A stretch of 26,409 nt of DNA, taken from NCBI RefSeq assembly GCF_006345805.1, contig NW_021834079.1, positions 1-26,409 of the forward strand, in the 5' to 3' direction. Below, piece after piece: positions 2,336 through 25,761 of this stretch; position 1 is the first letter of the stretch, and each line of letters opens with the position of its first letter. A program made the translations under genes and the position numbers. The notes below the pieces were generated by a model that searched no databases, was not told the DNA's origin, and was given only the letters and a program-made list of their open reading frames with translations. Source of the DNA: Octopus sinensis. Its lineage: Eukaryota.

Positions 2336-3737
2336 TTAGCGCAGGGTAGACCGGTCAACCTGCATCATCGAAGGGTGGACAGGGCGAGGCTCATCAGTGA
2401 AGTAATCATGAGTAAGAGCATCCTGAGCGGAAATACGTTTTTCTGGAGAATAGCGAAAAAAAGAATTGAGCAAATTGAATCCATTCACAGTAAGGTAGTT
2501 CCCAAACCTGTTCCGCAATGAGTTATAGCGATAGTCCGGAATTTTAATCATCTTCACTCCTTCCAACTCGGTGAACCCCGGCCAAATCTTCTCGTTCGGA
2601 GAGCCAAGGTCCTTCAACTACTTGATCAATACAACCTTAAAGATTGCGTGAAGTTGATCAATCTCCGACCTGGAGGTCCAGAGGGGTCTCATGAGCAGCA
2701 ATTCAGCAAACACACAACCAACAGACCACACATCAACCTTTGTCGAATATTTCTTGAATAAAAAACACACACATACCTTGATCCCCAACAACAACTCGGG
2801 AGACCGATACCACAGAGTCACAATGACTGGCGTGTAGTTCTTAAGGGGAGAACCATATTCTCGGGCGGAACCAAAGTCACCCAACTTGAGGACCCCCCGG
2901 TCAGTGATGAGTATGTTTGAAGTCTTAATGTCCCGGTGGAGGATCCAGTTATCGTGCAGGTGGGCCACGGCGGTAAGCAGTTGCCTTAAAATGCACTTGA
3001 CTTCTCCAATCCTAAAGGGTGACTTGCGAGCCTCGATTAGCGACTTTAGGTCACTTTGGACGAAATCCATAACCACGTATATTCGATCCATATGTGACCC
3101 CACCACAATTTCCCGCACTCCCACAATGTTCTCGTGGGGGGCTTTCAACAAAGTAGATACCTCACGAAGAGAGGTTATCGGAAATCCATCCTTTTCATTC
3201 TCCATCTTGAGTCGCTTCAAAGCCACCAACTCGCCCGTGGTTTTGTCACGTGCCTGGAAGACCACTCCGTAACTCCCCTCCTCCACCCGAGACAGGTTTT
3301 CATACTCTTCCACAAACCGACACCCCTGAATTGCCGGGAAATACGACGCGAGTTTTTTTTCTGGGAATTTTTTTTGAGGGACAGCAATCTCTTCGGCAAC
3401 AATCTCTTCAGCAACAATCTCTTCGGGACTGTCCTCGCTGTTGTCGCCCTCTTCCTTTTTTTCTAATCAGATCTAACGATTTAAAAACTATACCAATTTC
3501 AGTCTCGCTCTCTGAGTTTTCAGACAAAGGAATGTCACGGAAAAATCCACGACGCTCAATCCTCATTTGCTTGGCACGGATTACCTTCCTTGCTAACAAT
3601 TCTGCAGAAAAGTCATTTTGTCCGCGTTTCTCTGATTCGGTTTTTAATGAGATTTTATAGTCTAGTTCGTTCTTATTGGATTCAGAGTCTGCCTCGGATA
3701 CTTCTCCATTTTCTAATAAAATCTTGAATTTCGACAT
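2336..3737 (-). CDS. CDK11: Cyclin-dependent kinase 11 (PITSLRE kinase), 4 exons, 440 aa as spliced
   Basis: Exons are 3737-3494, 3462-2777, 2752-2636 and 2611-2336 (1323 nt, open). Introns are 31, 24 and 24 nt. Motifs: YFPAIQGCRFVEEY, EEGSYGVV, GFPITSLRE, HRDIKTSN, DFG, VTLWYRSPELLLG, DLGSPNEKIWPG. Splicing restores LLGIK-KYSTKVD and IFK-DLG. Confidence 0.95.
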
Positions 3738-4494: not shown

Positions 4495-5210
4495 TTTGAC
4501 TTGGCCTTAAGACGTGAAAACTACTATAGACAAGAGAAAATAAATATGCAAGCTCTCCACGTGTGTAAAATTAATCGACCCGTTTTTTTCACGAAAACAG
4601 TCCCCTAGAAAATATTAACTTGTTCGGTGTCATTTACATCCTTCGTTTTATCTCAAACTAAGGATCCACTTGACGTGGTCTTAAGATGTAAGACCTGTAA
4701 TAGAAATTAGAAAATAAATATGCGAGATCTCCACGTATGTGGAACCAATCAACATGATTTTTTTAGGGAAACAGTCTCACGTGCTTTTCGACAATATTAA
4801 CTTATCGACCACTTCGACATTTATTCTACCATCAAAAACTAAAGATTCGTGGTACGTCGTCTCAAGATGTGAGACACTCTATAAAAATCAGAAAATAAAT
4901 AGGTCGATTGTTGGGACACACGAGTTGAACTTGAGCATTGATTTTCTGATTTTCGGAGTAGGTCTTAAATCTTAAGACGAAGAATTGTGAAAGCTTAGTT
5001 TAAGATTGTAGAAAAGTCAAACAAGTTAATATAATTGACGATTTTCCTTTAAAAAATCAGGTGGATTGGTTCCAAGCACGTGGAGAACTTCATAATGATA
5101 TCTTAATTTTCATTATATGTCTCACATTTTAAGAAGACGTATTGTGAAGCTTTAGTCTGAAATAATAGGAAGGATGCCGAGAAGAAAGAACAAATTAATA
5201 TAGCGTTTAA
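4495..5210. repeat. Foldback structure built from a degenerate ~175-180 bp subrepeat
   Basis: Forward units carry TTAAGAYGT..GAAAATAAATA..CTCCACGT..AATATTAACTT at ~4508, 4681 and 4862. Inverted units follow 4941. The core inverted pair is AAAATCAGAAAAT (4884-4896) and ATTTTCTGATTTT (4941-4953). Confidence 0.7.
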
Positions 5211-6749: not shown

Positions 6750-8818
6750 CTAGCTATTAAGTACTGGCTCGCAGAATTGAAAGACAATTCCCGCGTAAAA
6801 CAGCCAGCGAGATCCTCTGAATAAGGAATATAAATTTCCTGGGATCTCGGGAGCGATAGTTGCACAGACGGCCAAGTTTCTTAAGGTGAGCAAACGTCTT
6901 GGCCCCCAAAACATAGGAAGTCTCGACGGCAATTGTTCAAAACCTAAATCGGTCGCGCAAATCCTTGTATTTCGTTAATTTCGCGAATTCGGCCTTCTCG
7001 GCCGACGAACCGGGGCGACAAGCCGTGGAATTCAAGGCTTCCTTGGCGAAAGAGTCGGCACACATGACGTCCCAAACGGAGTGAATCCTTATCGAGAACA
7101 GTATCCAAAAGCGGAGAAAAAAGTACATTCAGCCAGGAGCCTGAGTATGGCTGACAGGCGGAACGGAAACAAGACAGTCTGTGTTGGTCGAGTTTTGTCC
7201 CAATCTCGCTGAGAAAAGATATCGGAAGGGACTTCAGAGAAATTTTGTTTCCAAAGTGCAAGGGTCGAATCGATATCAGAGTCCAACGATGATTCAGTAG
7301 TTTTTTCCAGAATCTTTTGGACAAGGAGATATGATCCAGACGCCGAAAAAAGAAAGGCAGGAAGAGCCAAATCAATACTGGAACGGAGGCCCAGACCCCC
7401 GTGACTCAAGGAAGTTTAGCCTGACACCAGGCAATATCGTCGAAATGCACATTAAGAATTTTCTCCGCAGAACTCGAACGAATTTATCATATGATTCCAG
7501 CACTTGCGTGACATAAAAACAAGGAGAGCTCCTCAGGATATAAATAATTTTTGGGATCAAAAGATAATTCTTGCGGATGTAGAATGAAGGATGAGGATCA
7601 ATGATAGAAAGTTTTTCACAAAGAGATGCGATAAGATTTTTTTGGCGAGGAGGATTCGTGTAGCTGAGTCGGCGAGAATCGGTGACCCCAGAATTTCCAG
7701 ATCAGACAGAAGTGTCTGTCTCAACTCAGGAAGGAGTCCACAGAAAAGAGAGAAGAAGTTCTTAAACAGGGATGGCTCAACAGAGAAATTGACAATCTCA
7801 GACTTGCTGGAATTAATGTCGGATAACGCCGAAATTAGAATGGCCAGGTCCTTCAACAAAACACCAGGTGGACCGCCCAGGGTGCAATCGTCGAGATACC
7901 AGAGATTAAGGAGTGATTCATTAACCCGGGCAATGGGATCCACGGCAAGAGCGAAAAGTAATGGTCCCAAAGGATCACCCTGTTGGACGCCACAGGACGA
8001 AGAAATGAAAAAACCGCCGGCGATTAAAAGTGATGGAAGCGAGTACGAAAGTGAGATAAAAGGAAGCAAGTGTGGAACACGGTCTTGACAGACCTCCAAC
8101 AAATAGCCACGGTCCAGAGAATTGAAAGCATTAGTTACATCCAGTTTCAATAAGGCAAGGGGAATATTGGAACGAATAGAAGCGTGAATAAAACAACGAC
8201 AGGCATAGACAAAAGACTCGCAGCCGCCAGGAACACCCACACCCAAATGAATGGGCTGCAGTTGCTCGCCAATAGAAGGGATAACGGACTTGCAACAGAT
8301 TTTCGCAAATAAACGACGAAAGACATTTCCAACAGGAATAGGCCTGATACCACCATCTTTCTTGCCCAAAGCTGTAAGATTCGCGGAAAAGAACAGAATT
8401 CTAGCATGGTCAGAAATTTTGCCGCTTAGAAATAAATTGCACAAGTTAGTGCAAGCATTCAAGAGGTGATTCCCGGTATCACCAGTTGCGGAAATTAAGT
8501 CTCTCAAATGAATAGGGCGGAGACCGTCGATACCTTTGCTACTGTTACCCCTAAAAAAGTTTAAGACGTCCAGAAGTTGTTTGGAAGAAACAGAAAAGGG
8601 AAAACAGGAGGAATGGGCCATATCAAAGGTTACTGGTTTTCTAATAGGGTGCTTTTCCTTGAGAATGCGAGCAACATCGGGGGTGATTGTACGGACAGAA
8701 TCGGAAGATGACAAGAGACGAACAGCCGCGCTGACATCATGCGACATTAGACAGGAGTTAATCAGAGACCGTAAACGTTTAGAAGCGTCCTTCGACGAGA
8801 GCATAGCGGTAGATTTTA
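6750..8818 (-). mobile_element. CRE-clade non-LTR retrotransposon (copy A), 5'-truncated, frameshifted, internally deleted
   Basis: RT ORF 7557..8804 has FFSANLTALGKKDGGIRPI, LDVTNAFNSLDR, GVQQGDPLGPLLF and WYLDD. Later frames give GGLGLRS and QHRLSCFRSACQPYSGSWL, then WDVMCADSF..KAEFAKLTKY..VETS..QRISLAVLRGN. The zinc knuckle and RPDG are missing at ~7090. Confidence 0.92.
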
Positions 8819-8821
8819 AAT

Positions 8822-9060
8822 GGGAGAGAAACGGAAGATAAAGAGTGAGAAATACGCTAAAATTGGAAATGACAGAGTGTTTGTCCCCTTGACTGTTGAG
8901 ACGTCAGGAATACAAGGAACCTTCTACTCGGAGCCTACTCCTGCGGATTGGCTCACTAATGGAAAAGGTTACCGGCGATCCGTCTAAGCACCGGTATTTA
9001 ACCGAACGAATATCCATAGCCATAGTCAGAGGCAATGACCAGTTTTCTCTAGTCTTTTTA
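8822..9060 (+). mobile_element. RLE-type (CRE-like) retroelement C-terminal fragment, head-to-head with copy A
   Basis: EKRKIKSEKYAKIGNDRVFVPLTVETSG...VTGDPSKHRYLTERISIAIVRGN. Confidence 0.75.
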
Positions 9061-11721: not shown

Positions 11722-12232
11722 ATATTATTATAGCACATTCCGTAGGGACATAAATAGAAAGAGTTATATTCCTACACGTGCCACACACGATACGGCCTTC
11801 TGTACCAACAATTTCCAACTTCTGCGGTTTTGGGCCAGTATCCGAAGTTCGTCGAGATCATCACAGGTCTTCAGGGTTTTCTTTAAAAGCCTCAAGTCGT
11901 CTTGCAGAACAACCGGTAGGGTTGTTCTGGGTCGTCCTCGAAATTTTACGTCATCTGATAGGAAGTATTCTTGCATGGTCACATAGGAAGGTGAATTTGG
12001 ATCCATCCTCAAGATGTGTCCAAATAGTTTCCAGTGACCATTGACAATATCCCGACTAATTGGCCTCGAGTTGCTGATCTTGTAAATAGTTGAGTTGCTG
12101 ATTTTCTTCGGCCAGTGTAGGCAGTTCAGGGAACGAAGCTGTTTTCTGTGGAAAGAATCAAGGTTCTTTAAATCTGAATCAGAAATGCCCCATGGTGAGG
12201 AATTGTAGAGTAGTACAGGTTTGACGAAAGAT
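11722..12232 (-). mobile_element. RTE-clade LINE 3' segment (~500 bp)
   Basis: FVKPVLLYNSSPW..LDSFHRKQLR..WPKKISN..WKLFGHILRM..GRPRTTL..AQNRRSW, then a GTGCTATAATAAT tail. Confidence 0.9.
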
Positions 12233-13166
12233 AAGAGCATTCTGTTGATAAAAGAACAGATCGACGAAAGAAACCGTGATCTCGAGTTTCCAGTGTCCGG
12301 CGAGATTAGGTCCTTAAGATGTCCTGGTCGCAGCCCGTCTAGACCCGTCCCGCTGCTTGGAGCGAAGGATAAAATTCCGGCTTTAATGTCATCGTCCGAG
12401 ATAAACAATGGCTGAAGAATCCCTGGGAGAGGTGGAATTCGAGAGTCGCTTTGAGCAGCCGGATGTCGATCCAGGAGAGCTTCATGAGTCTCAATTGAAG
12501 GCTTCAGGAATGGACTATCACTGGAGAGCACTCTCAAAGCCGAGTGTATTCCTCCTTCCAATAATTTAGAATGAATAGTCCTCCGTAAATGTATCTCTTC
12601 AGAAAGTGTATCCTTTGGTATCTTTCGATGACTCTTCACAGTAGCCGGTTGTAATGGGGGATCGATCACTGTAAGTTCGGAATCAAACAGGCGTATGTTT
12701 TCTTTGTCGGACGATGAAAAAGATCTACCACGATTCGTAGAACCAGAAGGTAAACCCAAACACAACGGGCAAAACAAAGCAGGCGGATCCAGTAACTGAT
12801 GTCGTTCGATGATAACGAGCTTTCAATGCTGGCTGAAAGGCAGTCGGCAGCGGTTAAACGAGCTCCTCTGGGAATCCCTATGAGGATGTGTCTTGAGGAT
12901 GACCATTTAGAAATCGTGTCAAGTAGGCGTTCGTGATCCAACGGCACAGTGCAAGCAGTTTGATTGAAGGGGGCAGTGCCAGCTGGAAAGCATCGATGAC
13001 AGTCCCAATGGGAAATGTTAGTAAGGGCTTTCTTAGAAACTCCTACGGATGACATGTGAAAGAGCCTTGAGCACGCTGAACAAGTGATCGTTCTCTTTCT
13101 CGTGTTAATTATGTTGCATTTTTCGCACGAATGGCTGTTTTTCTTATTTACCTCATTAATCTTCAT
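12233..13166 (-). mobile_element. CRE-clade element 5' part (copy B) with N-terminal PHD finger, fused in frame to the RTE segment
   Basis: The 13166 ORF reads CEKC..CSAC..FHMSS..WDCHRC, continuing in frame into IPRGARLTAA..SSND..WIRLLCF. After a frameshift it reads SKLLEGGIHSALR..DRHP..GLDGLRPGHLKDLIS..INRML. Confidence 0.88.
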
Positions 13167-13479
13167 TGCACTGACTCTGTGTTGAAAATAGTGATTACAC
13201 TACACCACGTCAAAAAAATTCATATTAATTATTTTACATGTCCCGAACGTGTCTTAATCTGATACAGTGAATACTCGCAAATTCGCTATTTTTGGTCATT
13301 TTTTGCTGATAATTTGAGAATTCACAAATTTCAGAATATAATCAATAATTTTTGAATGTGGTAAAACTGTTTAATAATTTAAAAATAGACAAAATTGACG
13401 TAATTAAAAAAATTAATTTAATTCTTCTTTTCCTAATTTGAGGGAGACCTTCCAATTTGGAATTATTGACATTATAAAC

Positions 13480-14190
13480 TTTGATATCCATTCAGGAAGC
13501 CCGGAATTTTTCAGAATCTCTGAAGGAACGTCATTTAGCGAGGCGTGGCGGGACCTCGACCGGCGCTCCTGCGACACGAGAGAGGGTGGAGCCCTTTAGC
13601 GTCGACTTTGGCTCCACATCGGCATCGGTGGATGCTGCATATGTTGAGGCCAAGCCGAAGGGAGATCCCAATCCTCAGGCAGTCGTCATCCAAAAAAGTT
13701 CCTGTTGATGTAGATGGGTAGGCGCCGAGCCATGCATCGCTGTGAGGATGTGCGGCCGAGAGTAGGCACGCTAGCCGGTGTTGGTCTAGCTCTGGTTTCA
13801 TCTTCCAAAACGAGTCGGCGGCCCAGATTTCATCCCATTCCCGTTGCACGGACATGTCGAACGGAAGAAGTAGGTTAGCGTCAGTCCAGAATTCCAGGAG
13901 TCGGCGGTCGGCAACTCCAGAGAGAGTTCGTTGAAGGGGAGTAGAACCACTAGGACGAGTTGCCGGCTTCTGGAAATTGAAGAGAAATGTGCATGTGGAG
14001 CCAGATCTTTCGGCGAGCGAAGACCGATCCCTCCGAACCTGACGGGAAGTTTTGCTTGAGTCCAACCGATTTCGTCAAAGGAAATGTTCAAAACTGCTCC
14101 GTGCAGGATTTCAATGATTTTTCCAAGTAAGACAGAATGTCTGGATGCGAGTAGCATGGCAGGCAGTGGAGCGTGTACAGAATTTTCGAC
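13480..14190 (-). mobile_element. Internal CRE fragment (post-RT region and zinc knuckle)
   Basis: QAKLPVRFGGIGLRS, QHRLACLLSAAHPHSDAWL, CRCGAKVDAKGLHPLSCRRSAGR. Both ends are truncated. Confidence 0.88.
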
Positions 14191-14299
14191 ATATGTAATT
14201 GAGATTATGAAATAAATTGAGTAATAATTTGCTTAAAAAAAATTTGCACGTTGCACGTTGTTGTTGTGGTGCACTTTTTCAGTATATTTGTCAACCTAT

Positions 14300-14472
14300 C
14301 TTATCTTTTTCTTTCATTTTATCTCTCCATTTATCATTTCTTTTTCTTTCATTTTATTTGTCCTTCTATCTCTTCCATTTCTTTATTTCATTTTTCTTTC
14401 TTCTGAACTTCTTTCTTCTTTCTTTTCTATTTCTTTTTTATACATTTCCATCTTTCTTTTCTATTTCTTTCC
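14300..14472 (+). repeat. Polypyrimidine low-complexity tract (TTTC/TTC-like)
   Basis: About 170 nt made almost entirely of T and C, ending just before ATG 14477. Confidence 0.85.
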
Positions 14473-14476
14473 TACG

Positions 14477-17188
14477 ATGGCTATTTGCTCTTCATGCAAA
14501 ACTAGCAACGATCGGAAGAAAGGTAGATACTGTTCTGGCTGCAACAGTTTCTTCCACCTTTCGTGTGTTCGACTTTCCAGGCGCGTTTCAGCTTCTCTCA
14601 TAACCTGGAACTGCCCTGTTTGTCGTTCTTGTTCCCCGTTCGGCCAACAGTCCGCCGGAAATCCCTGCTGAAAGTCCATCTCCGTCAGCCGAAGATGCTT
14701 TAAGATTCATCTATTCTTCTCGCTGTAACCGCCAAATTCCGGCACGGATACCGAAGGCAGCGAGGATTCAAGCTGCTCTCTCTTTGTCCACAGCTATAAA
14801 CCGAGCTTTGTCATCTAATGACCAGTCTGACTGGTTACTCCTTTTTGGTTTTGCTGTTTTCGGTATTGGGATCCAACCCTCCCGGCCCGACAGCGAGTCT
14901 AAAAAACTTTCTCCCGCATCGATTATTAAACAGCAACTCGCCCTATTCGATCATTGTACTTCTCTGTTTCCCTCCCAGTTCGATTCCCTCCACTCTGACT
15001 CTCACAAATGTGTCGCCCCTTCTGTGGTTAACACTAAAACTTCCTCCGATTGCATTTACCTCCGTCGTAAGGTGAACAGCAAGCTGTTGGACGGCGACGT
15101 CCGCGGAGCTGTCAGACTTGTTGCCTCCTCTAACCGGCTTTTGTCCCCATCTCCTTCCGCATTGTCTAATTTGAGATCCAAGCACCCCAGTCCTCCAGTA
15201 AACTCCCGCACCCAACCCGCTGTCGATACGACCGCCCTTCCGCAACTGCTGGTTACCGCTTCACAGGTTGAGAAGGCACTGAAAAGTTTTTCCCCAAGCA
15301 GCAGTGGGGGTATAGATGGGCTGAAGCCCGGACACATTAAAGACTTGACTTCACCTCTTACTGCTGAGGCAGGCCGTCTCCTCTTGGAATCTATCACCAA
15401 TCTCTGTAACCGTCTTATCGGTGGGAATTTACCGGATTTTGCCCGGGCGATTTTCTTCTCGGCTAATCTCACTGCTTTGGGTAAAAAAGATAACGGGGTC
15501 AGGCCGATCGCCGTGGGTAATGTTTTCCGCAGATTGGCCGGAAAGCTCGTTTGCCACGTTGTGATCCCCGAGTTGGTCCCGAAATTTTTGCCAGTCCAAT
15601 TGGGCGTCGGCGTCAGTGGAGGGTGTGAATCGGCTGCCCATGCCGTAAGAGAACTTATGGATTCTTCATTGGAATATCTTTTAGTTAAACTGGACATATC
15701 AAATGCGTTTAACACAGTGAGACGGGATCATTTGCTCGAGACCTGCCTTTCTCTCGCCCCCTCCGCTTATCCTCTGGTCCACCTTTCGTACTCACAACCC
15801 AGCCTCCTCCTGTTTGGCGATTCCTTTATCGTCTCATCGACCGGAGTGCAACAGGGAGATCCCCTGGGGCCTTTCCTATTTGCTATGTGTGTCAACTCCG
15901 TCGCTCATTCTGTCCGCTCTCCGGTAAATATCTGGTACTTGGACGACGCGACGATTTGTGGACCTCCCCGCTCTGTCTTAGACGACCTGCGGAGCATTAT
16001 CCCGGCCCTTTCATCCATCGGTCTGGAGATAAACTCAAGCAAGTCCGAAGTCCTAAACCTGAATATTCCTTCCGATTTTTTGCCGAAACTCTGGACGCCC
16101 TGGAACCTATTCTAAAAGGCGCGCGGGTATCAGAAACAAAGGACCTTGTAATCCTTGGTTCGCCAATTGGTCACGAGGCCCTCTCACAAACGCTCATCGC
16201 CAAGGCAAGCAATCTGTCAAACATGATCGAACGGCTTTCCCTCATTGATGCCCACGTCGGGTTCTTTCTTCTGCGTAACTATTTCTCAACTCCGAGGCTT
16301 TTGTACACCCTAAGGAGTTCTCCTTGTTTTCGCATGCCTAATCTGTTATCCGATATCGATTCTATCTTGAAGTCTGGAGCCGAGTATCTGTGCAACATCC
16401 ATTTCGACGCTCTGGGGTGGCTTCAATCTTCCCTGCCTGTTAATCTCGGGGGGATTGGCCTTCGTTCGCCCGTTTATCTGGCTCTTCCTGCCTTCCTCTC
16501 GTCCCTGGCATCATCCCGTGCCCTCACTGACATCGTTCTCAGAAACCTTCCCGAACGAAAAATGTCAGTTGATCACGTGGCCGCTCTGGACCTTTGGGAT
16601 TCATTGTACAACAAAAGACCCAGTGACCCGTGTATCCAAGCTCAATGGGATGCCATTTCTTGTGAAGCTCTTGACGTACATCTACGCAAAAATTTCGATC
16701 AGCACAGACTTGCATGTCTCCGCGCAGGCTGCTGCACAGGGAGTGGGGCCTGGCTGGATGCTCTCCCTGTCCCTTCCACCGGTAACCTACTAGACAAAGA
16801 TTGCCTACGAATTGGTTTATCATTGCGTCTTGGATTGGAAATCTGCGAAATACACAAATGTCGTTGTGGTGCTGTCATTGACCGTTTTGGTCTACATCCC
16901 CTTTCCTGTCGTCGCAGTGCAGGGCGCGCACCACGCCATGCAGCACTTAACGACGTTATTCAGAGGGGGCTCACGGCCGCTGGGATTCCATCAATCCTCG
17001 AACCCGTCGGGCTTGCGAGGGGAGACGGAAAAAGACCCGACGGCCTATCGGACTTTCCCGTTTGAGTTCGGCAAGTCTCTGTTATGGGATGCGACGTGTT
17101 CAGACACTTTCTCGGAGCTCAACCTTCCTTCTTCAGCTGTCGAGCCTGGCTCAGTCTCTCGCAAAACCGAGAAGATGAAGATTGGAAA
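14477..17188 (+). mobile_element. Near full-length CRE-clade retrotransposon (copy C): PHD - RT - zinc knuckle - RLE, 3' end cut by satellite
   Basis: From ATG 14477: CSSC..CSGC..FHLSC..WNCPVC (C4HC3). Frameshifts occur near 14660, 16085 and 17045. Motifs: GVQQGDPLGPFLF, WYLDD, CRCGAVIDRFGLHPLSC, RGDGKRPDG, LLWDATCSDT. The last ~60 codons and the tail are absent. Confidence 0.93.
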
Positions 17189-20100
17189 GATTTTGTAATA
17201 AATTATGTGACATATTATGCAATTTGGGAAGGTAGCAGGATGTGAGGATTTAGGGGTACTTGAGATTATGTAATTAATTGCGCAATATATACAACAATTT
17301 AGAGAGGTCTCTAGATGTGTGAATAAGTGGGTACTAGAGATTATGTAATAAATTGCCTAATATATTACGTAATTTTTAGAGGTCCCTATATGTAAAGATA
17401 TATGGGTTCTTGAGATTATGTACTAAATTGCGTTATATACTTTCCAATTTGGAGATGTTTCTAAATTTTAGGTTATGGGGGTACTTAATATATATCATAA
17501 ATTGAGTAACATTTATATTATCAATTTGGGGAGGTGCAGGATGTAAGGATATGGGGTTCTTGAAATTATGTAATAAATTGCGTAAAATATGAATTTCCAA
17601 AGTTTTCCAGGATGTAAGGATCTATGGGTTCTTGAGATTATTTAAAGATTTCGTTATGTATTTTCATTTGGAGAGGTCTCTAAATGTTTGGATATGGGGG
17701 TACTTGAGATTTTGAAATAAATTATGTAACATATTATGCAATTTGGGAAGGTGCCAGGATGTGATGATTTAGGGGTACTTGAGATTATGTAATTAATTGC
17801 GTAATATATACTACAATCAAGAGAGGTCTCTAGATGTGTGAACAAGTGGGTAATTGAGATTATGTAATAAATTGCCTAATATATTACGTAATTTTTGGAG
17901 GTCCCTATATTTAAAGATATATGGGTTCTTGAGATTATGTACTAAATTGTGTTATATACTTTCCAATTTGGAGAGGTTTCTAAATTTTAGGATATGGAGG
18001 TACTTGAGATTAAATCATAAATTGAGTAAAATTTATATTATGCAATTTGGGGAGGTGTCAGGATGTGAGGATTTAGGGGTACTTGAGATTATGTAATTAA
18101 TTGCGTAATAAATTGCGTAAAATATGAAATTTGGAGAGGTCCCACGATGTGAGGATATATGGGTTCTTGAGATTATTTAATTTATTGCGTTATATATTTT
18201 CAATTGGAGAGGTCCCTAAATGTTGGGATATGGGGGTACTTGAGATTTTGTAATAAATTATGTAACATATTATGCAATTTGGGAAGGTGCCAGGATGTGA
18301 GGATTTAGGGGTACTTGAGATTATGTAATTAATTGCGTAATATATACTACAATTAAGAGAGTTCTCTAGATGTGTGAATAATGTGGGTACTTGAGATTAT
18401 GTAATAAATTGCCTAATATTACGTAATTTTTGGAGGTCCCTATATGTAAAGATATATGGGTTCTTGAGATTATTACTAAATTGCGTTATATACTTTCCAA
18501 TTTGGAGATGTTTCTAAATTTTAGGATATGGGGGTACTTGAGATTATATCATAAATTGAGTAACATTTATATTATGCAATTGGGGAGGTGTCAGGATGTG
18601 AGGATTTAGGGGTACTTGAGATTATGTATTAATTGCGTAAAATTGCGTAAAATATAATTTTGGAGATTTCCAGGATGTGAGGATATATTGGTTCTTGAGA
18701 TTATTTAATAATTGCGTTTATTATTTTCAATTGGAGAGGTCCCTAAATGTTGGGATATGGGGTACTTGAAATTTTGTAATAAATTATGTAACATATTATG
18801 CAATTTGGGAGAGGTGTCCAGGATGTGAGGATTTAGGGGTACTTGAGATTATGTAATAATTGCGTAATATCAACTACAATTTAAGAGGTCTCTAGATGTG
18901 TGAATAAGTGGGTACTTGAGATTATGTACTAAATTTGTTATATACTTCCAATTTAGAGAGGTTCTTAATTTTAGGATATGGGGGTACTGAGATTATATCA
19001 TAAATTGAGTAACATTTATATTATGCAATTTGGTGAGGTTGCAGGATGTAAGGATATGGGGTTCTTGAAATTATGTAATAATTGCGTAAAATTTAATTTT
19101 GGAGAATTTCCAGATGTGAGGATATATTGGTTCTTGAGATTATTTAATAGATTGCGTTATATATTTTCATTTGGAGAGGTCTCAAATGTTGGGATATGGG
19201 GTTACTTAAGATTTTGTAATAAATTATGTAATATTATGCAATTTGGGAGGTGCCAGGATGTGAGGATTTAGGGGTACTTGAGATTATGTAATTAATTGCG
19301 TAATATATACTACAATTAAGAGAGGTCTCTAGATGTGTGAATAAGTGGGTACTTGAGATTATGTAATAAATTGCCTAATATATTACGTAATTTTTGGAGG
19401 TCCCTATATGTAAAGATATATGGGTTCTTGAGATTATGTACTAAATTGCGTTATATACTTTCCAATTTATAGAGGTTTCTTAATTTTAGGATGGGGGGGT
19501 ACATGAGATTATATCATAAATTGAGTAACATTTATATTATGCAATATGGTGAGGTTGCAGGATGTAAGGATATGGGGGTTCTTGAAATTATGTAATAAAT
19601 TGTGTAAAATTTGAATTTTGGAGAATTTCCAGGATGTGAGGATATATTGGTTTTGAGATTATTTAATAGATTGCGTTATATATTTTCAATTGGAGAGGTC
19701 CCTAAATGTTGGGATATGGAGGTACTTGAAATTTGTAATAAATTATGTAACATATTATGCAATTGGGAGAGGTGTCAGGATGTGAGGATTTAGGGGTACT
19801 TGAGATTATGTAATTAATTGCGTAATATCAACTACAATTTAAGAGGTCTCTAGATGTGTGAATAAGTGGGTACTTGAGATTATGTACTAAATTGTGTTAT
19901 ATACTTTCCAATTTAGAGAGGTTTCTTAATTTTAGGATATGGGGGTATTGAGATTATATCATAAATTGAATAACATTTATATTATGCAATATGGTGAGGT
20001 TGCAGGATGTAAGGATATGGGGGTTCTTGAAATTATGTAATAAATTGCGTAAAATTTGAATTTTGGAGAATTTCCAGGATGTGAGGATATATTGGTTCTT

Positions 20101-21186
20101 GAGATTATTTAATAGATTGCGTTATATATTTTCATTTGGAGAGATCTCTAAATGTTGGGATATGGGGTTACTTAAGATTTTGTAATAAATTATGTAACAT
20201 ATTATGCAATTTGGGGAGGTGCCAGGATGTGAGGATTTAGGGGTACTTGAGATTATGTAATTAATTGCGTAATATATACTACAATTAAGAGAGGTCTCTA
20301 TGTGTGAATATGTGGGTACTTTAGATTATGTAATAAATGCCTAATATATTACGTAATTTTTGAGGTCCCTATATGTAAAGATATATGGGTTCTTGAGATT
20401 ATGTACTAAATTGCGTTATATACTTTCCAATTTGGAGATGTTTCTAAATTTTATGATATGGGGGTACTTGAGATTATATCATAAATTGAGTGAGTAACAT
20501 TTATATTATGCAATTAGGGGAGGTGTCAGGATGTGAGGATTTAGGTTTTCTTTAGCCTATGTAATAATTTGCGTAATAAATTGCTTAAAATATGAAATTT
20601 CCAGAGGTCCCAGGATGTGAGGATATATGGGTTCTTGAGATTATTTAAACAATTTCGTTATGTATTTTCATTTGGAGAGGTCTCTAAATGTTTGGATATG
20701 GGGGTACTTGAGATTTTGAAATAAATTATGTAACATATTATGCAATTTGGGAAGGTGCCAGGATGTGATGATTTAGGGGTACTTGAGATTATGTAATTAA
20801 TTGCGTAATATATACTACAATTAAGAGAGGTCTTTAGATGTGTGAAAAAGTGCGTAATTGAGATTATGTAATAAATTGCCTAATATATTACGTAATTTTT
20901 GGAGGTCCCTATATGTAAAGATATATGGGTTCTTGAGATTATGTACTAAATTGCGTTATATACTTTCCAATTTGGAGATGTTTCTAAATTTTAGGTTATG
21001 GGGGGTACTTAATATTGTATCATAAATTGAGTAACATATATATTATCCATTTGGGGAGGTGTCAGGATGTGAGGATTTAGGGGTACTTGAGATTATGTAA
21101 TTAATTGCGTAACAAATTGCGTAAAATATGAATTTTGGAGAGTTTCCAGGATGTGAGGATATATTGGTTCTTGAGATTATTTAATA
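17189..21186. repeat. Higher-order satellite of ~75-bp monomers (7 types, A-G)
   Basis: Monomer starts at 17189, 17264, 17339 and 17414 are 75 bp apart. Type-A monomers start at 17189, 17708, 18244, ~18770, 19210, ~19730, 20176 and 20712, giving units of 519, 536, 526, 440, 520, 446 and 536 bp. Confidence 0.95.
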
Positions 21187-21683: not shown

Positions 21684-22977
21684 TTAGGGTCAAACTACTA
21701 AGTAAAGTCAACAAACTAATAAATTCTCCCAGCGAGACGGAGGGAACAGCTGTTGCCACGCATGACAGCCAGCAGGATCCTCTGAATGGGAAAGTAAATT
21801 CCTAGGGTCCTTGACGCGAAAGAACAAAGATGTCCCAATTTCTTTAGGGAAGTGAGGGTCCCGGAGCAAAGACGCCGGAAGTCTCGACAACGATTGGCCA
21901 AAACCAAAAGTCATCCATCAAAGACTGATATTTCCGGCACTTCGAAAGCTCAGCCTTATTAGCACGAGACCCAGCAAGAGAGGCCGATTCGTTGATGAAA
22001 GACTTTGAGAAGGTATCCACACAAGTGGAATCCCAGACCAAAGGTCTCCCAGAATAAAACGAGAACAACGTAGAGCCGTCCGGCCTTTTCCCGTCACCAC
22101 GGTCGAGACCCTTAGGCTCAAGGACAGAAGGGTAGCCGGCCTTTTCGAGTGAGTCGAGAATGATTCTGTTAATCGCCGAATGGCGTGGAATACGACCGCG
22201 CTTTTCTTGCAGGAGAGGGCATGGAGCCCGTATACGTCCATAGTAGATCCGCACCGGCAGGGGTGGGGACTACAGATCGGAAGTCCGAGGCGGAGGCAAA
22301 TGCCAAAACGGAGGGCGTCGGAGTCAAGACAGGTGTCCAAATGGGTCGAAGGAAGGCAGTTAAGCCAAGAGCCAGAATGCGGTTGGCGGCTGGCACGGTA
22401 ACAAGCCAGTCTGTGCTGGTTCAGGAGAGCCTCCAACGAGTCCGCATGATGCTTACTAAGAATTTTATCCCATTCACGTTGGAGGGACCTATCAGAAGGG
22501 AACTCAAGCCCTTTTTCCTTCCAAAGCAAAGTGCAGAATTAATATCAGAGTCCAAACGAGATCCGGGCGATTTTCAAGAATCTTATGGACAAGAAGATAC
22601 ATCCTGAAGACGATGAAAGGAAAGCGGGAAGAGAAATGTCGAGAGCCGAGCGGAGCCCAAGCCCACCAAAAGGAACAGGAAGTTTGGCCTGACGCCAACC
22701 GACATCATCGAACTTGACGTTAAAAATAATCTCGGCTGAAGAACGCACCAGAGCGTCAAAAGACTCAAAGCAGAGGGAACAGAAAAGCAACAGGAACTCC
22801 TTAGGACATAATTGATCCTCGGAATCAAAAGAAAGTTTTTGAGGATAAAAAAAGCGGGATGGGATCGATGTCCACAAGTTTATCACAAAGAGAAGCAAGA
22901 GCATTTCTCTTGGAATCGAGAATACGAGAGACCGATTGGTGGTGGATCGGGGCACCCAGGATTTCAAGTTCAGAATA

Positions 22978-24916
22978 TGTCACGAGCCTAGTCGTTACGA
23001 GCTAGGTCGTGACATTTCGCTTATGTTTCTATAAAGATTAAAAATTAATTATCGCTGAGCCTAATAAAATTATTCTTAATATTTAAAATTAATCTTATTA
23101 ATTAAAACAAAATATCCGGATAATTATACATCCGTAATTGTAATATACATATAAACGCGTGTTTTTTCTGTGTTACCTATGTCGCGTTCTTTTGTAAAAG
23201 ATATGGATGAGTATCGATTGCTTGAAAAAGTTTTAACTGGACAAAATATTGAAAATCAATCGAGGCAAAAAGTTTACTCCCTTAAAAAGAAAGCTGAAAA
23301 GTTCATTTTAATCAATGGAAGAATATACCTTAAACAGCCGTGTGGAAATCACAAATTAGTGATTTCGACGGACAACGTTGACGAGATGAAATTGGTGGCT
23401 AGCCAAATTCATCTCGTTTCGCATTGTGGACATAACACTCTTGAGAACATGTGCCATGAAAGATATTTCACTGTAAAACGACAAATAATCCGAAAAATTG
23501 TTGCCGATTGTGAAATTTGCAAATTTTCAACTCCCTTGAAAGTAGGGGGGAAGAGAAAATCATGTGATTGCAATCGTCCCAATGAAAAATTCCAGATGGA
23601 CTTAATTGATCTGAAGAGGTATCAATTTTTGTATTATATAATAAAGATTTAAACAAACAAATGAAACTATAGCAGGCTTAACGGCTTTTAACGGTTATTG
23701 ACGTCTACTCGAAGTTCGCATTCACTCGAAACTAAAACATAAAGCGGAATTGACGTTGCTGAAAATCTCAAAAAAATTTTTCTACGTTTGGACGTGTCCA
23801 TATTTGCAATCGGATAATGAAACTGAATTCAAAAATCCACATGTGACTGCATGTGTGAATCTTTCAACATTCAACAGATACACAGTAGGCCAAACAATCC
23901 CAGAAGTCAAGGATCATCGAGCGTTTTAACCAAACGGTTACCAGGTCGCTATCTAAAATGATGGCTAATGATGAAGATAAGTGTGGACGAAGTATATAGA
24001 TTGAAGCTGTTTATTTTAATTAAAGTAAACATTCTTCTACTGGTTTTCTTAAAAATTATTCATTTTAGGAGATTCCCCATTTCATAGATATCGTGGGATT
24101 AGAGGATCGAACAACTTCATTCCTGAAAAGACATGAGATGAAGAGTGACAATTCAGATGGTTAGTTAAAATTCGCAATATATAGAATAGATTCGAAAAAC
24201 ATAGAATTTTCTTTCAACTTTCCGCACACCGATGTGACATCTCCATATTCCAAAAAAATGAACCAGGAGAAGGGGTGTTCATCGGTCAAAATATTCATTT
24301 AATTGGAGATAAGGTAAAACTCAAATTATTCTAAATTGTAGATAAGGATCAAAAAGGATTATGGTACCAATCCTTCACTGCACTCAAAAAATTGAAAGTC
24401 CATACGGAGAAGTTTGTACAATAACTGAAATCCTGCGCATAATATGGTCAGAGTTCAAATGGATGAGGGAACTACTAAGAAGACACTCATGAAAAGAATT
24501 AAAAAAATTTAAATAACATAATTGATTGTTTTGTTAATAAAAAAATTCAAAACCTAATTAGCAGAGAAACATTCATGACCGAACATTCAAATAGACAAAA
24601 TTTCGAATAAAAATACATTTTCTGCGTATTTTTCTAATTTAAAGCATTTTGAATTTTCTTATTTGAAAAAAATAGCAATTCATAAATTAAAATATTATTT
24701 TAGTTCGGGAATCGTTTTTAAAGCACGGTCTAGTTGGCAATTTTTTAAATTCTATCATCGAAAAATATTGGCATCCAATTCCATTTTTAGTATTTGTCAT
24801 TTTATAATATTTATTTGACAAAGTCGATTTGAAATTGAATTCAAATATTTTTTGAATTTTTTTTCTAAGTCCATAAGGTAACGACCTAGGCTCGGTAACG
24901 ACCTAGGCTCGTGACA
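22978..24916 (+). mobile_element. Ginger2/TDD-type DNA transposon, 1939 bp
   Basis: ~37-39 bp TIRs TGTCACGAGCCTAG(G)TCGTTAC.. lie at 22978-23014 and 24878-24916. The 5-bp TSD GAATA lies at 22973-22977 and 24917-24921. It encodes a retroviral-type integrase and has no RT, RNase H or LTRs. Confidence 0.92.
23179..24512 (+). pseudogene. Ginger2 DDE integrase/transposase with four micro-introns and several frameshifts
   Basis: HHCC finger (HLVSHCG..CEIC), D1 in QMDLID, LTVIDVYSKF, D2 in QSDN, and E in IERFN 35 residues later after repairing two 1-nt shifts. Also HSSTG|DSPF and GDK|IRIKKDY. Introns: 23619-23646 (28), 24043-24068 (26), 24160-24189 (30), 24314-24341 (28). Confidence 0.85.
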
Positions 24917-25761
24917 GAATAAGAGGTCTGCCTCAGATCGGGCAAGAGGCCACGAAACTGGGCAAAAAGGTCTTCGAAGGTGAGGTCTTCGACGTTAAGA
25001 TTAACGATTTCAGATTTTAGAGAATTGATTTCAAGAACAATAGATGACAACGCCGGGGAGTAGAGATTGCAAGTCGTTTAGCAAAATGTCGGGCGGACCA
25101 CCAATAGTACAGTCGTCCAAATACCAAATATTAAGAGGGGGACGCAATCCTGCGGGCGACAAAGTCCACGAGAGGGCAAATAATAAAGGACCAAGGATCG
25201 CCTTGCTGTACGCCACAGGAAGACGAAAGAAAGAATCGCAGCAACCAAGAGGCTCGGGTTTACCATAAGAAAGAAAAAATGAAGGGGCAGCAGCAGAGAA
25301 GGAAATTCTGGCACCTTGCAAACCTCAAGAAGATGCTTTCTATTGAGCGAATTGAAAGCGTTCTTCACATCCAATTTAATAATAACTGGGGCCGCTCTGA
25401 GAGACGAGCCGATTCAATGAAAACACGGGCAGGTGGACCGAGGCCTCGCACCCACCAGGTACCCCCACACCCAACTGAATGGGCTGGAGTCGTCGCTAAT
25501 AGGAGGAATTACAAGCTTGCATCCGACCTTTGCAAACAAGCGACGAAAAACGTTTCCCGACGGCAATAGGTCTGATGCCGCCGTCTTCTCCCCAAAGCAG
25601 ACAGGTTCGCAGAGAAGAAAAAATTGAAAACTTAAGTTATTTCAATTTTAATTTAAAATCATGTTAAAATTTAAAATAATTAATAAATATATTTGTTGAT
25701 GATAGGCTTGTTAGGTGTCAAAGTTGCGTCTAGCGCTCGGTCGCGCGCTGCGCTCGCGACA

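Follow-up and report, generated by a model that had tools for sequence, protein, structure and literature searches.

The element and its insertion site

The 26,409-nt stretch of DNA that we analysed (the window) contains a Ginger-like transposable element of 1,939 bp (22978-24916). It has TGT..ACA ends, exact terminal arms of 14 bp (22978-22991 and 24903-24916) and the pentanucleotide GAATA on both sides as a 5-bp target site duplication (TSD). The preliminary description, made from the letters of the window alone, had proposed a complete 1.94-kb element with terminal inverted repeats (TIRs) and a 5-bp TSD, and these ends bear it out. In sister copies the TIR has 40 bp with an internal 17-bp repeat; in the window copy single bases are missing within it.

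The element interrupts a non-LTR retrotransposon, recognised by eye from its ORF motifs, which is continuous in contig C9300 of the same assembly. At this empty site the flanks are joined with one GAATA (98.3% identity over 302 nt). Since filled and empty alleles occur in the same assembly, the insertion is polymorphic and recent, and the element is young or recently active.

A 16-mer of the terminus occurs 30 times in the assembly (control, 0). Searching the assembly with the element DNA gave at least 92 matches (40 scored of 286 candidates), and those scored include one further full-length copy of 95% identity and several internal-deletion derivatives of 840-1,600 bp. Seven loci (L009, L010, L011, L015, L016, L019 and L025) make up a non-autonomous subfamily that shares an internal deletion from element position 247 to 1296 and is found at several sites. 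The target of the family is TAWTA: at 29 distinct termini, the five adjoining outer bases are T in 23, A in 22, T or A in 27, T in 28 and A in 24, and the 5-bp TSD is exact in five of the eight two-ended copies among 11 loci examined.

The window contig and C9300 represent two haplotypes (window 1-26409 against G000:C9300:420138-449857), and C9300 has two insertions that the window lacks, of about 1.8 kb near window position 1830 and about 4.1 kb near 5110. The window also holds a nest of non-LTR retrotransposons (618-1067, 6944-8903, 11764-17198 and 21844-25413), with several long open frames and a PHD-like ORF1 recognised by eye, and a 75-bp satellite of 52 copies with a strong G skew (17188-21112), further arrays of which flank the retrotransposon in C9300.

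Table 1 Features of the window, and intron sites of the element groups found in the same genome (as residue/phase of the Dictyocoela protein P0127)
Feature	Position	Strand	Remarks
Host CDK11, 21-24-nt introns	2336..3737	-	Same-contig control for intron size
Non-LTR retrotransposon, 3' part	21844..22977	-	ORF motifs by eye; pieces without Pfam match
Left TSD copy, GAATA	22973..22977	+	Single copy at empty site in C9300
Left TIR	22978..23014	+	Sister copies, 40 bp; single bases missing here
Exon 1: N-terminal extension, HHCC zinc finger, first catalytic Asp	23179..23618	+	Integrase_H2C2, E 0.003; second ATG at 23203
Predicted intron 1, phase 2	23619..23646	+	28 nt (sister copies, 29 nt)
Exon 2: catalytic core, second Asp and Glu	23647..24042	+	Several 1-nt indels in this copy
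Predicted intron 2, phase 1, 26 nt	24043..24068	+	GT-AG search; 21 of 25 loci
Exon 3: core end, linker start	24069..24159	+	Spliced majority frame
Predicted intron 3, phase 1, 30 nt, in-frame length with stop	24160..24189	+	P0127 gives this junction, P0126 another donor
Exon 4: linker and start of C-terminal domain	24190..24313	+	Frame, P0126/P0127 alignment
Predicted intron 4, phase 0	24314..24341	+	28 nt (sister copies, 27 nt); one site common to groups A and B
Exon 5: predicted beta-rich (SH3-like) C-terminal domain to stop codon	24342..24512	+	Fold inferred from homolog P0126
Right TIR, two 17-bp tandem units	24877..24916	-	Terminal repeat comparison
Right TSD copy, GAATA	24917..24921	+	Flank sequence
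Same interrupted retrotransposon, 5' part (reverse transcriptase motifs)	24917..25413	-	ORF motifs by eye
Group A (family of the window element), intron sites	148/2, 281/1, 394/0, once 239/1
Group B, intron sites	48/2, 123/0, 168/2, 182/1, 236/0, 394/0, 432/0
Group C, intron sites	47/1, 138/2
Group D, intron site	286/2

Integrase gene and predicted introns

The majority sequence of 16 copies and fragments stays closed without splicing, its frame ending at 164 aa. Spliced, it encodes 409 aa with an H2C2 (HHCC) zinc finger and the catalytic residues D141, D202 and E238, the latter two spaced by 35, in agreement with the HHCC-D,D(35)E integrase that had been proposed from the window. The introns were chosen on this majority by an exhaustive search for GT-AG gaps of 18-40 nt: removal of one, two, three and four gives frames of 287, 311, 360 and 409 aa, and a fifth brings the length down to 403 aa. 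They measure 29, 26, 30 and 27 nt and lie at the places given by the preliminary description; the residues at its last junction differ in the other copies, being GDK|IRIQKDY there and not GDK|IRIKKDY.

In a single copy without any indel relative to the majority, L005, removal of these four introns extends the frame from 105 aa to 350 aa, a length that none of 200 block-shuffles of L005 reached (median 97, maximum 245). With the Dictyocoela protein P0127 as guide, all four junctions of L005 are found and the alignment needs no frameshift; it scores 755, compared with 676 when no introns are allowed. Its counterpart P0126 recovers three of them exactly and assigns another donor to intron 3, which is situated in a variable linker and is the least supported of the four predictions.

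Positions of the introns were further compared in 25 loci of related families (about eight families, with many near-copies), which, apart from L005 itself and two fragments, are 51-65% identical. Intron 1 is found at the same codon and phase in 23 of the 25 loci, the two exceptions being fragments that start later; intron 2 keeps its site in 21 of 25, and intron 4 is found in 15 of the 20 loci spanning it. At these conserved sites the introns, of 19-34 nt, are unrelated in sequence. With GT-AG ends, a size typical of the host, and, for three of them, position and phase kept while the sequence diverged, the four segments of 26-30 nt hold up as predicted introns.

No Pfam match, including SH3 and p58_C, was obtained for exon 5. 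The C-terminal region has an SPYG string and a predicted beta-rich domain, and the predicted fold of the homolog P0126 (pLDDT 72) resembles foamy-virus and Ty3 integrases with a C-terminal beta domain. In group C an F-P..F..Y pattern precedes the finger. Between families dN is 0.17-0.35, with dS saturated or 1.8-2.0, which shows purifying selection on the integrase. In L006 the start of intron 3 is covered by an imprecise deletion of 21 nt, and the decayed copy L024 has GC at the donor of intron 1.

It had also been claimed that removal of the introns restores the reading frame. This holds for the majority and for L005, but not for the window copy, where introns 1 and 4 are 28 nt each and further indels remain: it departs from L005 by 28 further indel events (23 of them of 1 nt) and 14 substitutions, and on it P0127 and P0126 recover only one and three junctions, respectively. 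Compared with the allelic C9300, the flanks of the window copy have 14-31 indels per kb and almost no substitutions, whereas further left the rate is 0.2-0.9 per kb. Because the flanks show the same indel rate with almost no substitutions, the extra frameshifts are mostly sequencing errors; this end of the contig is poorly polished, and the window copy may be intact.

Host genome

The 2.72-Gb assembly contains two CDK11 genes. One has introns of 0.6-5.6 kb, is located on a 106-Mb scaffold and is closest to gastropods (71-73%, with fish at 68-70%); the best matches of the other, in the window, are gastropods and other invertebrates (66-70%). The window gene keeps two of the seven junction positions in the kinase region of the large-scaffold gene, so that its introns were lost as well as shortened. 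On element-bearing contigs, the 21 introns of five kinase genes measure 22-35 nt, with a median of 26 (hand count). Among the scored hits, no match to the element is on a chromosome-scale scaffold; element-bearing contigs whose length was seen have at most 1.3 Mb, and every intron class of the elements, including the intronless one, occurs on contigs shared with an intron-bearing family.

The accessible text of PMC13644364 names myxobolids and Dicyema as the only animals with introns below 30 nt, and the median given for Dicyema sp. is 27 nt (PMC6543705); the D. japonicum genome is described as 49% repeats and LINE-rich (PMC6736024). Intron size, a lophotrochozoan-leaning CDK11 and the mollusc-like co-sequenced genome together make it likely that the host is a dicyemid sequenced along with a cephalopod. 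A myxozoan in a fish is disfavoured, as the large-scaffold CDK11 is no closer to fish than to gastropods.

Relatives of the integrase

A protein search with the family profile was evaluated on the best 120 of 281 passing proteins, one query-derived row being set aside. The best matches among those listed are proteins of Dictyocoela roeselum and D. muelleri (47-55% identity), followed by Nosema granulosis, Pseudoloma and Nematocida; Enteropsectra is also represented, and a full HMMER scan agrees on microsporidia as nearest relatives. The microsporidian proteins can be aligned from end to end, C-terminal domain included, with 46-49% identity across some 390-450 residues, while the named animal KRBA2-like proteins among the matches listed are only 28-38% identical and branch apart. 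The five microsporidian genera live in crustaceans, fish and nematodes.

The smallest clade of a 270-row FastTree with all families of this genome has 117 rows: 18 of its own, 14 named microsporidian ones from five genera and 85 rows without an organism name, so that all named relatives (14 of 14) are microsporidian. Organism names were looked up for 30 further proteins, and the four clusters that name one are all microsporidian. Two unnamed rows are identical to elements of this genome, and some of the others may therefore be dicyemid or belong to another animal. In a quick tree of 88 rows the clade is separate from seven LTR polyprotein rows, from chromodomain-bearing integrases (which we take to be Polinton-like) and from KRBA2-like proteins, the latter three groups forming a three-way split without resolution; a grouping with the LTR or Polinton-like integrases sampled was not observed.

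A more careful tree of 60 rows pairs groups A and B (A+B, support 94/19) with the Dictyocoela rows (100/100), as a sister and not nested in them; the support of A+B itself drops to 94/19 once L234 is added. Groups C+F, D and E have other places in the tree, with microsporidian and unnamed rows around them. A single clade for the families of this genome was rejected (p 0.0002 with 13 rows; 5e-60 with 23 rows) in a test devised after the first tree had been seen. The topology is consistent with transfer between microsporidia and the host lineage in either direction.

In a metagenome relative beside group D, the contig carries a 474-aa frame without interruption. Two other metagenome sequences, which the tree places on the KRBA2-like side, are TIR elements, L183 with a 5-bp TATTA TSD and L170 with a 4/6-bp TA-repeat TSD, and by L183 the 5-bp target is not unique to the clade.

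Intron content of the element lineages

We aligned 66 loci of this genome to P0127 and found 13 intron sites in alignable regions (Table 1); linker introns (P0127 residues about 290-370, intron 3 among them) are unalignable between families and lie outside this count. Groups E and F have no introns, F being seen over residues 36-285 only. An 18-nt intron called at 288/2 in group E is spurious: the frame is open there and identical to P0373. Lineages with no, one, two or four to seven micro-introns thus occur in one genome, at least four of them branching separately. Groups A and B have only 394/0 in common, and A+B, C and D have no site in common. Site 236/0 is patchy within A+B, which suggests some intron loss there.

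The introns amount to 83 distinct sequences of 19-34 nt (median 26, 79% AT) that are not conserved across families. In every group with complete ends (all but F) the ends are TGT..ACA, the TIRs measure 39-73 bp and the TSDs 5 bp. An intact four-intron family (L048 and L050, contigs C9497 and C10213) has only 1,606 bp; its intron 1 of 24 nt is stop-free, and its retention would add eight residues beside the first catalytic Asp. The intronless group E families L226 and L229 (C12442 and C1794) are identical to the database proteins P0373 and P0321, 399 and 397 aa long, so sequences of this organism are present in the protein set searched. In depth group E equals group A (branches 0.36-0.85), yet it has no introns, and this contradicts the idea that intron number simply tracks residence time in the host. 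Tandem duplication as the mechanism of gain left no footprint, with junction overlaps of only 0-5 nt. Separately, a group B fragment (L112:2013-3824) has perfect inverted repeats of at least 150 bp on its two sides, and their flanks are inverted as well, either a fold-back structure or an assembly artefact.

Two proposals of the preliminary description fare less well. Because intronless families exist in the same genome, the micro-intron spliceosome is not a requirement of the entire lineage. The argument on horizontal transfer points the opposite way: the lineage seems to have moved repeatedly and to be shared with microsporidia. For intron-bearing families alone, the introns could still block export.

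Origin of the lineage and of its introns

We consider it probable that the window element is a young Ginger-like copy with four predicted introns, from a lineage that reached the host out of microsporidia, or out of a pool shared with them, and acquired its introns in the host. Related lineages carry different intron sets or none, and the introns were therefore likely gained after arrival; repeated entry followed by intron gain is the likely course. The elements would have entered the host lineage at least four times (as A+B, C+F, D and E), and intron-free arrivals would have gained AT-rich GT-AG introns of 19-34 nt at no fewer than 13 sites, with later loss of some of them within A+B. The host spliceosome would remove the four host-sized introns from the integrase RNA; the integrase would then bind the TIR repeats, excise the element and insert it with a 5-nt stagger, in the manner of a retroviral intasome. 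The introns would be tolerated passengers and not a switch, being cheap where the splice signal is little more than GT..AG. Transfer of transposable elements between microsporidia and metazoans is described as recent and bidirectional (PMC4202319), and microsporidia are recorded as infecting Dicyemida (PMC8262960). The microsporidian genes are presumably free of introns, and it should be kept in mind that protein and pattern searches favour intronless genes and are biased against split ones.

Could the gaps simply be decay or assembly errors in a dead element? The 28 indel events of the window copy would suit this, but L005, which has no indels, opens only by splicing, gaps at the same codon and phase recur in diverged families and an outside protein recovers them; we rejected this reading, which is very improbable. 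A role of the introns as a switch, along the lines of the preliminary description, by which regulated retention sets the transposase output and introns are kept to confine the element to its host, is not supported by our results and is improbable. Retention of any of the four would truncate the protein (at 164, 287, 311 or 360 aa), stop-free introns are fewer at in-frame lengths (5 of 20) than among the others (15 of 32), and control of P-element splicing offers a precedent. That difference is small and uninformative, as the aligner misses stop-free introns of 3n length; the intact 1,606-bp family has a stop-free intron 1, intronless families thrive in the same genome and the intron sequences are not conserved.

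The two remaining alternatives concern the source. An intron-rich ancestor, whose introns shrank with those of the host while microsporidia and the host lineages lost different subsets, would explain the data by differential loss. Microsporidia are intron-poor, loss is apparent within A+B at the patchy site 236/0 and host CDK11 kept two of seven junction positions, all in keeping with it. Ginger1 has 0-4 introns, some conserved into host genes (PMC2836005), and loss is reported to dominate in CACTA transposases (PMC4158355). Against old introns, A+B (10 sites), C (two) and D (one) share none; had all 13 been ancestral, such a split would arise with a probability of about 0.003 (3/78 x 1/13, calculated by hand). 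Groups E and F lack introns, and 47-52% identity across two fast-evolving parasite phyla would be hard to fit with vertical descent. We regard this account as unlikely. The other is about equally unlikely: the home of the clade would be poorly sampled animals or protists, from which copies that were intronless or retro-processed passed to microsporidia, the host having gained introns itself or obtained them from such donors. The sister position of A+B, the many clade members without an organism name, the published bidirectional transfers (PMC4202319) and the database bias against split genes speak for an animal source; the exclusively microsporidian named rows, the distance of the named animal KRBA2-like proteins and the lack of matches on chromosome-scale scaffolds among scored hits speak against it.

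Host-sized introns in a Ginger-like element are by themselves expected biology, and introns in Ginger elements (PMC2836005) as well as intron change in transposases (PMC4158355; 10.1101/656579) have been described. New here are the exclusively microsporidian named relatives of the clade and at least four lineages with non-overlapping intron sites in one genome. Neither this clade nor any dicyemid transposon is described in the literature searched, a scope that leaves aside Repbase, subscription journals and supplements. The origin of new spliceosomal introns is still open outside introner-driven cases, and here one short gene, in one genome, exists in intronless, one-, two- and four-to-seven-intron versions beside an apparently intronless outside relative, which makes gain directly comparable and opens its sites, rates and junction footprints to comparison. 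We put forward only tentatively the stronger statement, that an unnamed microsporidia-centred clade made at least four jumps into a dicyemid, where its intron-free arrivals built at least 13 new micro-introns while mobile. If true, it would be a replicated natural experiment on intron birth, in which each gain makes the element a one-way passenger barred from return to an intron-poor donor, and it would add a parasite-to-parasite transposon route between microsporidia and dicyemids. These would be the first dicyemid DNA transposons described, as far as the literature searched shows, and the labels that call such proteins Gag-Pol in databases would need correction.

Comparison with known systems

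By structure the element appears Ginger2/TDD-like. Shared features, according to the accessible text of PMC2836005, are TGTNR ends (here TGTCA), TIRs, an AT-rich target and a single HHCC-DDE integrase without an OTU/Ulp1 tail; the 5-bp TSD is that of TDD-4/5, Ginger2 having 4 or 5 bp (PMC10045372). The preliminary label of Ginger2/TDD is therefore fair for how the element works, and tentative as a placement: the clade is apart from KRBA2-like proteins, KRBA2 and SCAND3 having Ginger2/TDD as their reported source clade (PMC3575427), and TDD-4 and the Repbase Ginger1 and Ginger2 families enter our comparison by description and not as rows of the trees. Micro-introns are a further difference. The elements are very compact, as had been noted, with 1.6-2.4 kb against 2.75-6.7 kb in the listed autonomous Ginger2/TDD families; the TIRs (40 bp here, 39-73 bp in related families) start slightly under the lower limit of the listed range of about 45-300 bp, and the 5-bp TAWTA target differs from the 4-bp TSD in RTATAY listed for animal Ginger2/TDD families. 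Ginger2/TDD is also described as lacking YPYY and GPY/F motifs; on this point the exon 5 results (no Pfam match beside an SPYG string and a predicted beta-rich domain) and the group C pattern point both ways.

Ginger1/GIN elements resemble the present one in TGTNR ends, TIRs of 40-270 bp, 0-4 GT-AG introns and the HHCC-DDE integrase. They differ in a 4-bp CCGG/CCGT TSD and in a protein of 500-800 aa with an OTU/Ulp1/PHD tail and clear YPYY and GPY/F motifs, whereas ours has 409 aa and ends after the C-terminal beta domain. LTR retrotransposons (Gypsy/Copia) possess LTRs, reverse transcriptase and RNase H, in contrast to a TIR-bounded 1.9-kb element with one gene. The best sequence and fold matches in the homolog alignment are foamy virus and Ty3 integrases (PDB 5frm and 7q5b), with the same predicted four-domain layout; unlike these systems, the element has no reverse transcriptase, gag or LTR and its ends are TIRs. 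Polinton/Maverick elements are 15-20 kb long and encode a polymerase. They are listed with a 6-bp TSD and no HHCC (PMC10045372), compared with 5 bp, an HHCC finger and 1.9 kb here. GingerRoot/IS3EU and IS481EU are likewise listed without HHCC, and with a 6-bp TSD and TA ends or with TSDs of 4, 15 or 25 bp (PMC10045372); the HHCC finger and 5-bp TSD set our element apart from both.

Stand-alone microsporidian integrases labelled 'Gag-Pol polyprotein' or 'transposable element' belong to the same clade and match over the full length, and are apparently unspliced single ORFs, unlike the intron-bearing families here. The accessible part of PMC5751038 reports Ginger in microsporidia only as an rve-domain class. 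Dicyemid and myxobolid micro-introns are alike in size (median 26 nt here, 27 nt in Dicyema sp.), GT..AG ends and weak signals (PMC6543705, PMC13644364), but the cases described there and in PMC6736024 are host genes with largely old positions, whereas these introns are in a mobile element at lineage-specific sites. Intron number also varies between families of CACTA (PMC4158355), of plant mariner as cited there and of the bivalve Tc1 element TLEWI (10.1101/656579). TLEWI is described as lacking TIRs and looks domesticated, and in CACTA the change is mostly loss; the elements described here are mobile, have TIRs, and show a pattern which suggests that, within a single genome, introns were gained at 13 or more sites.
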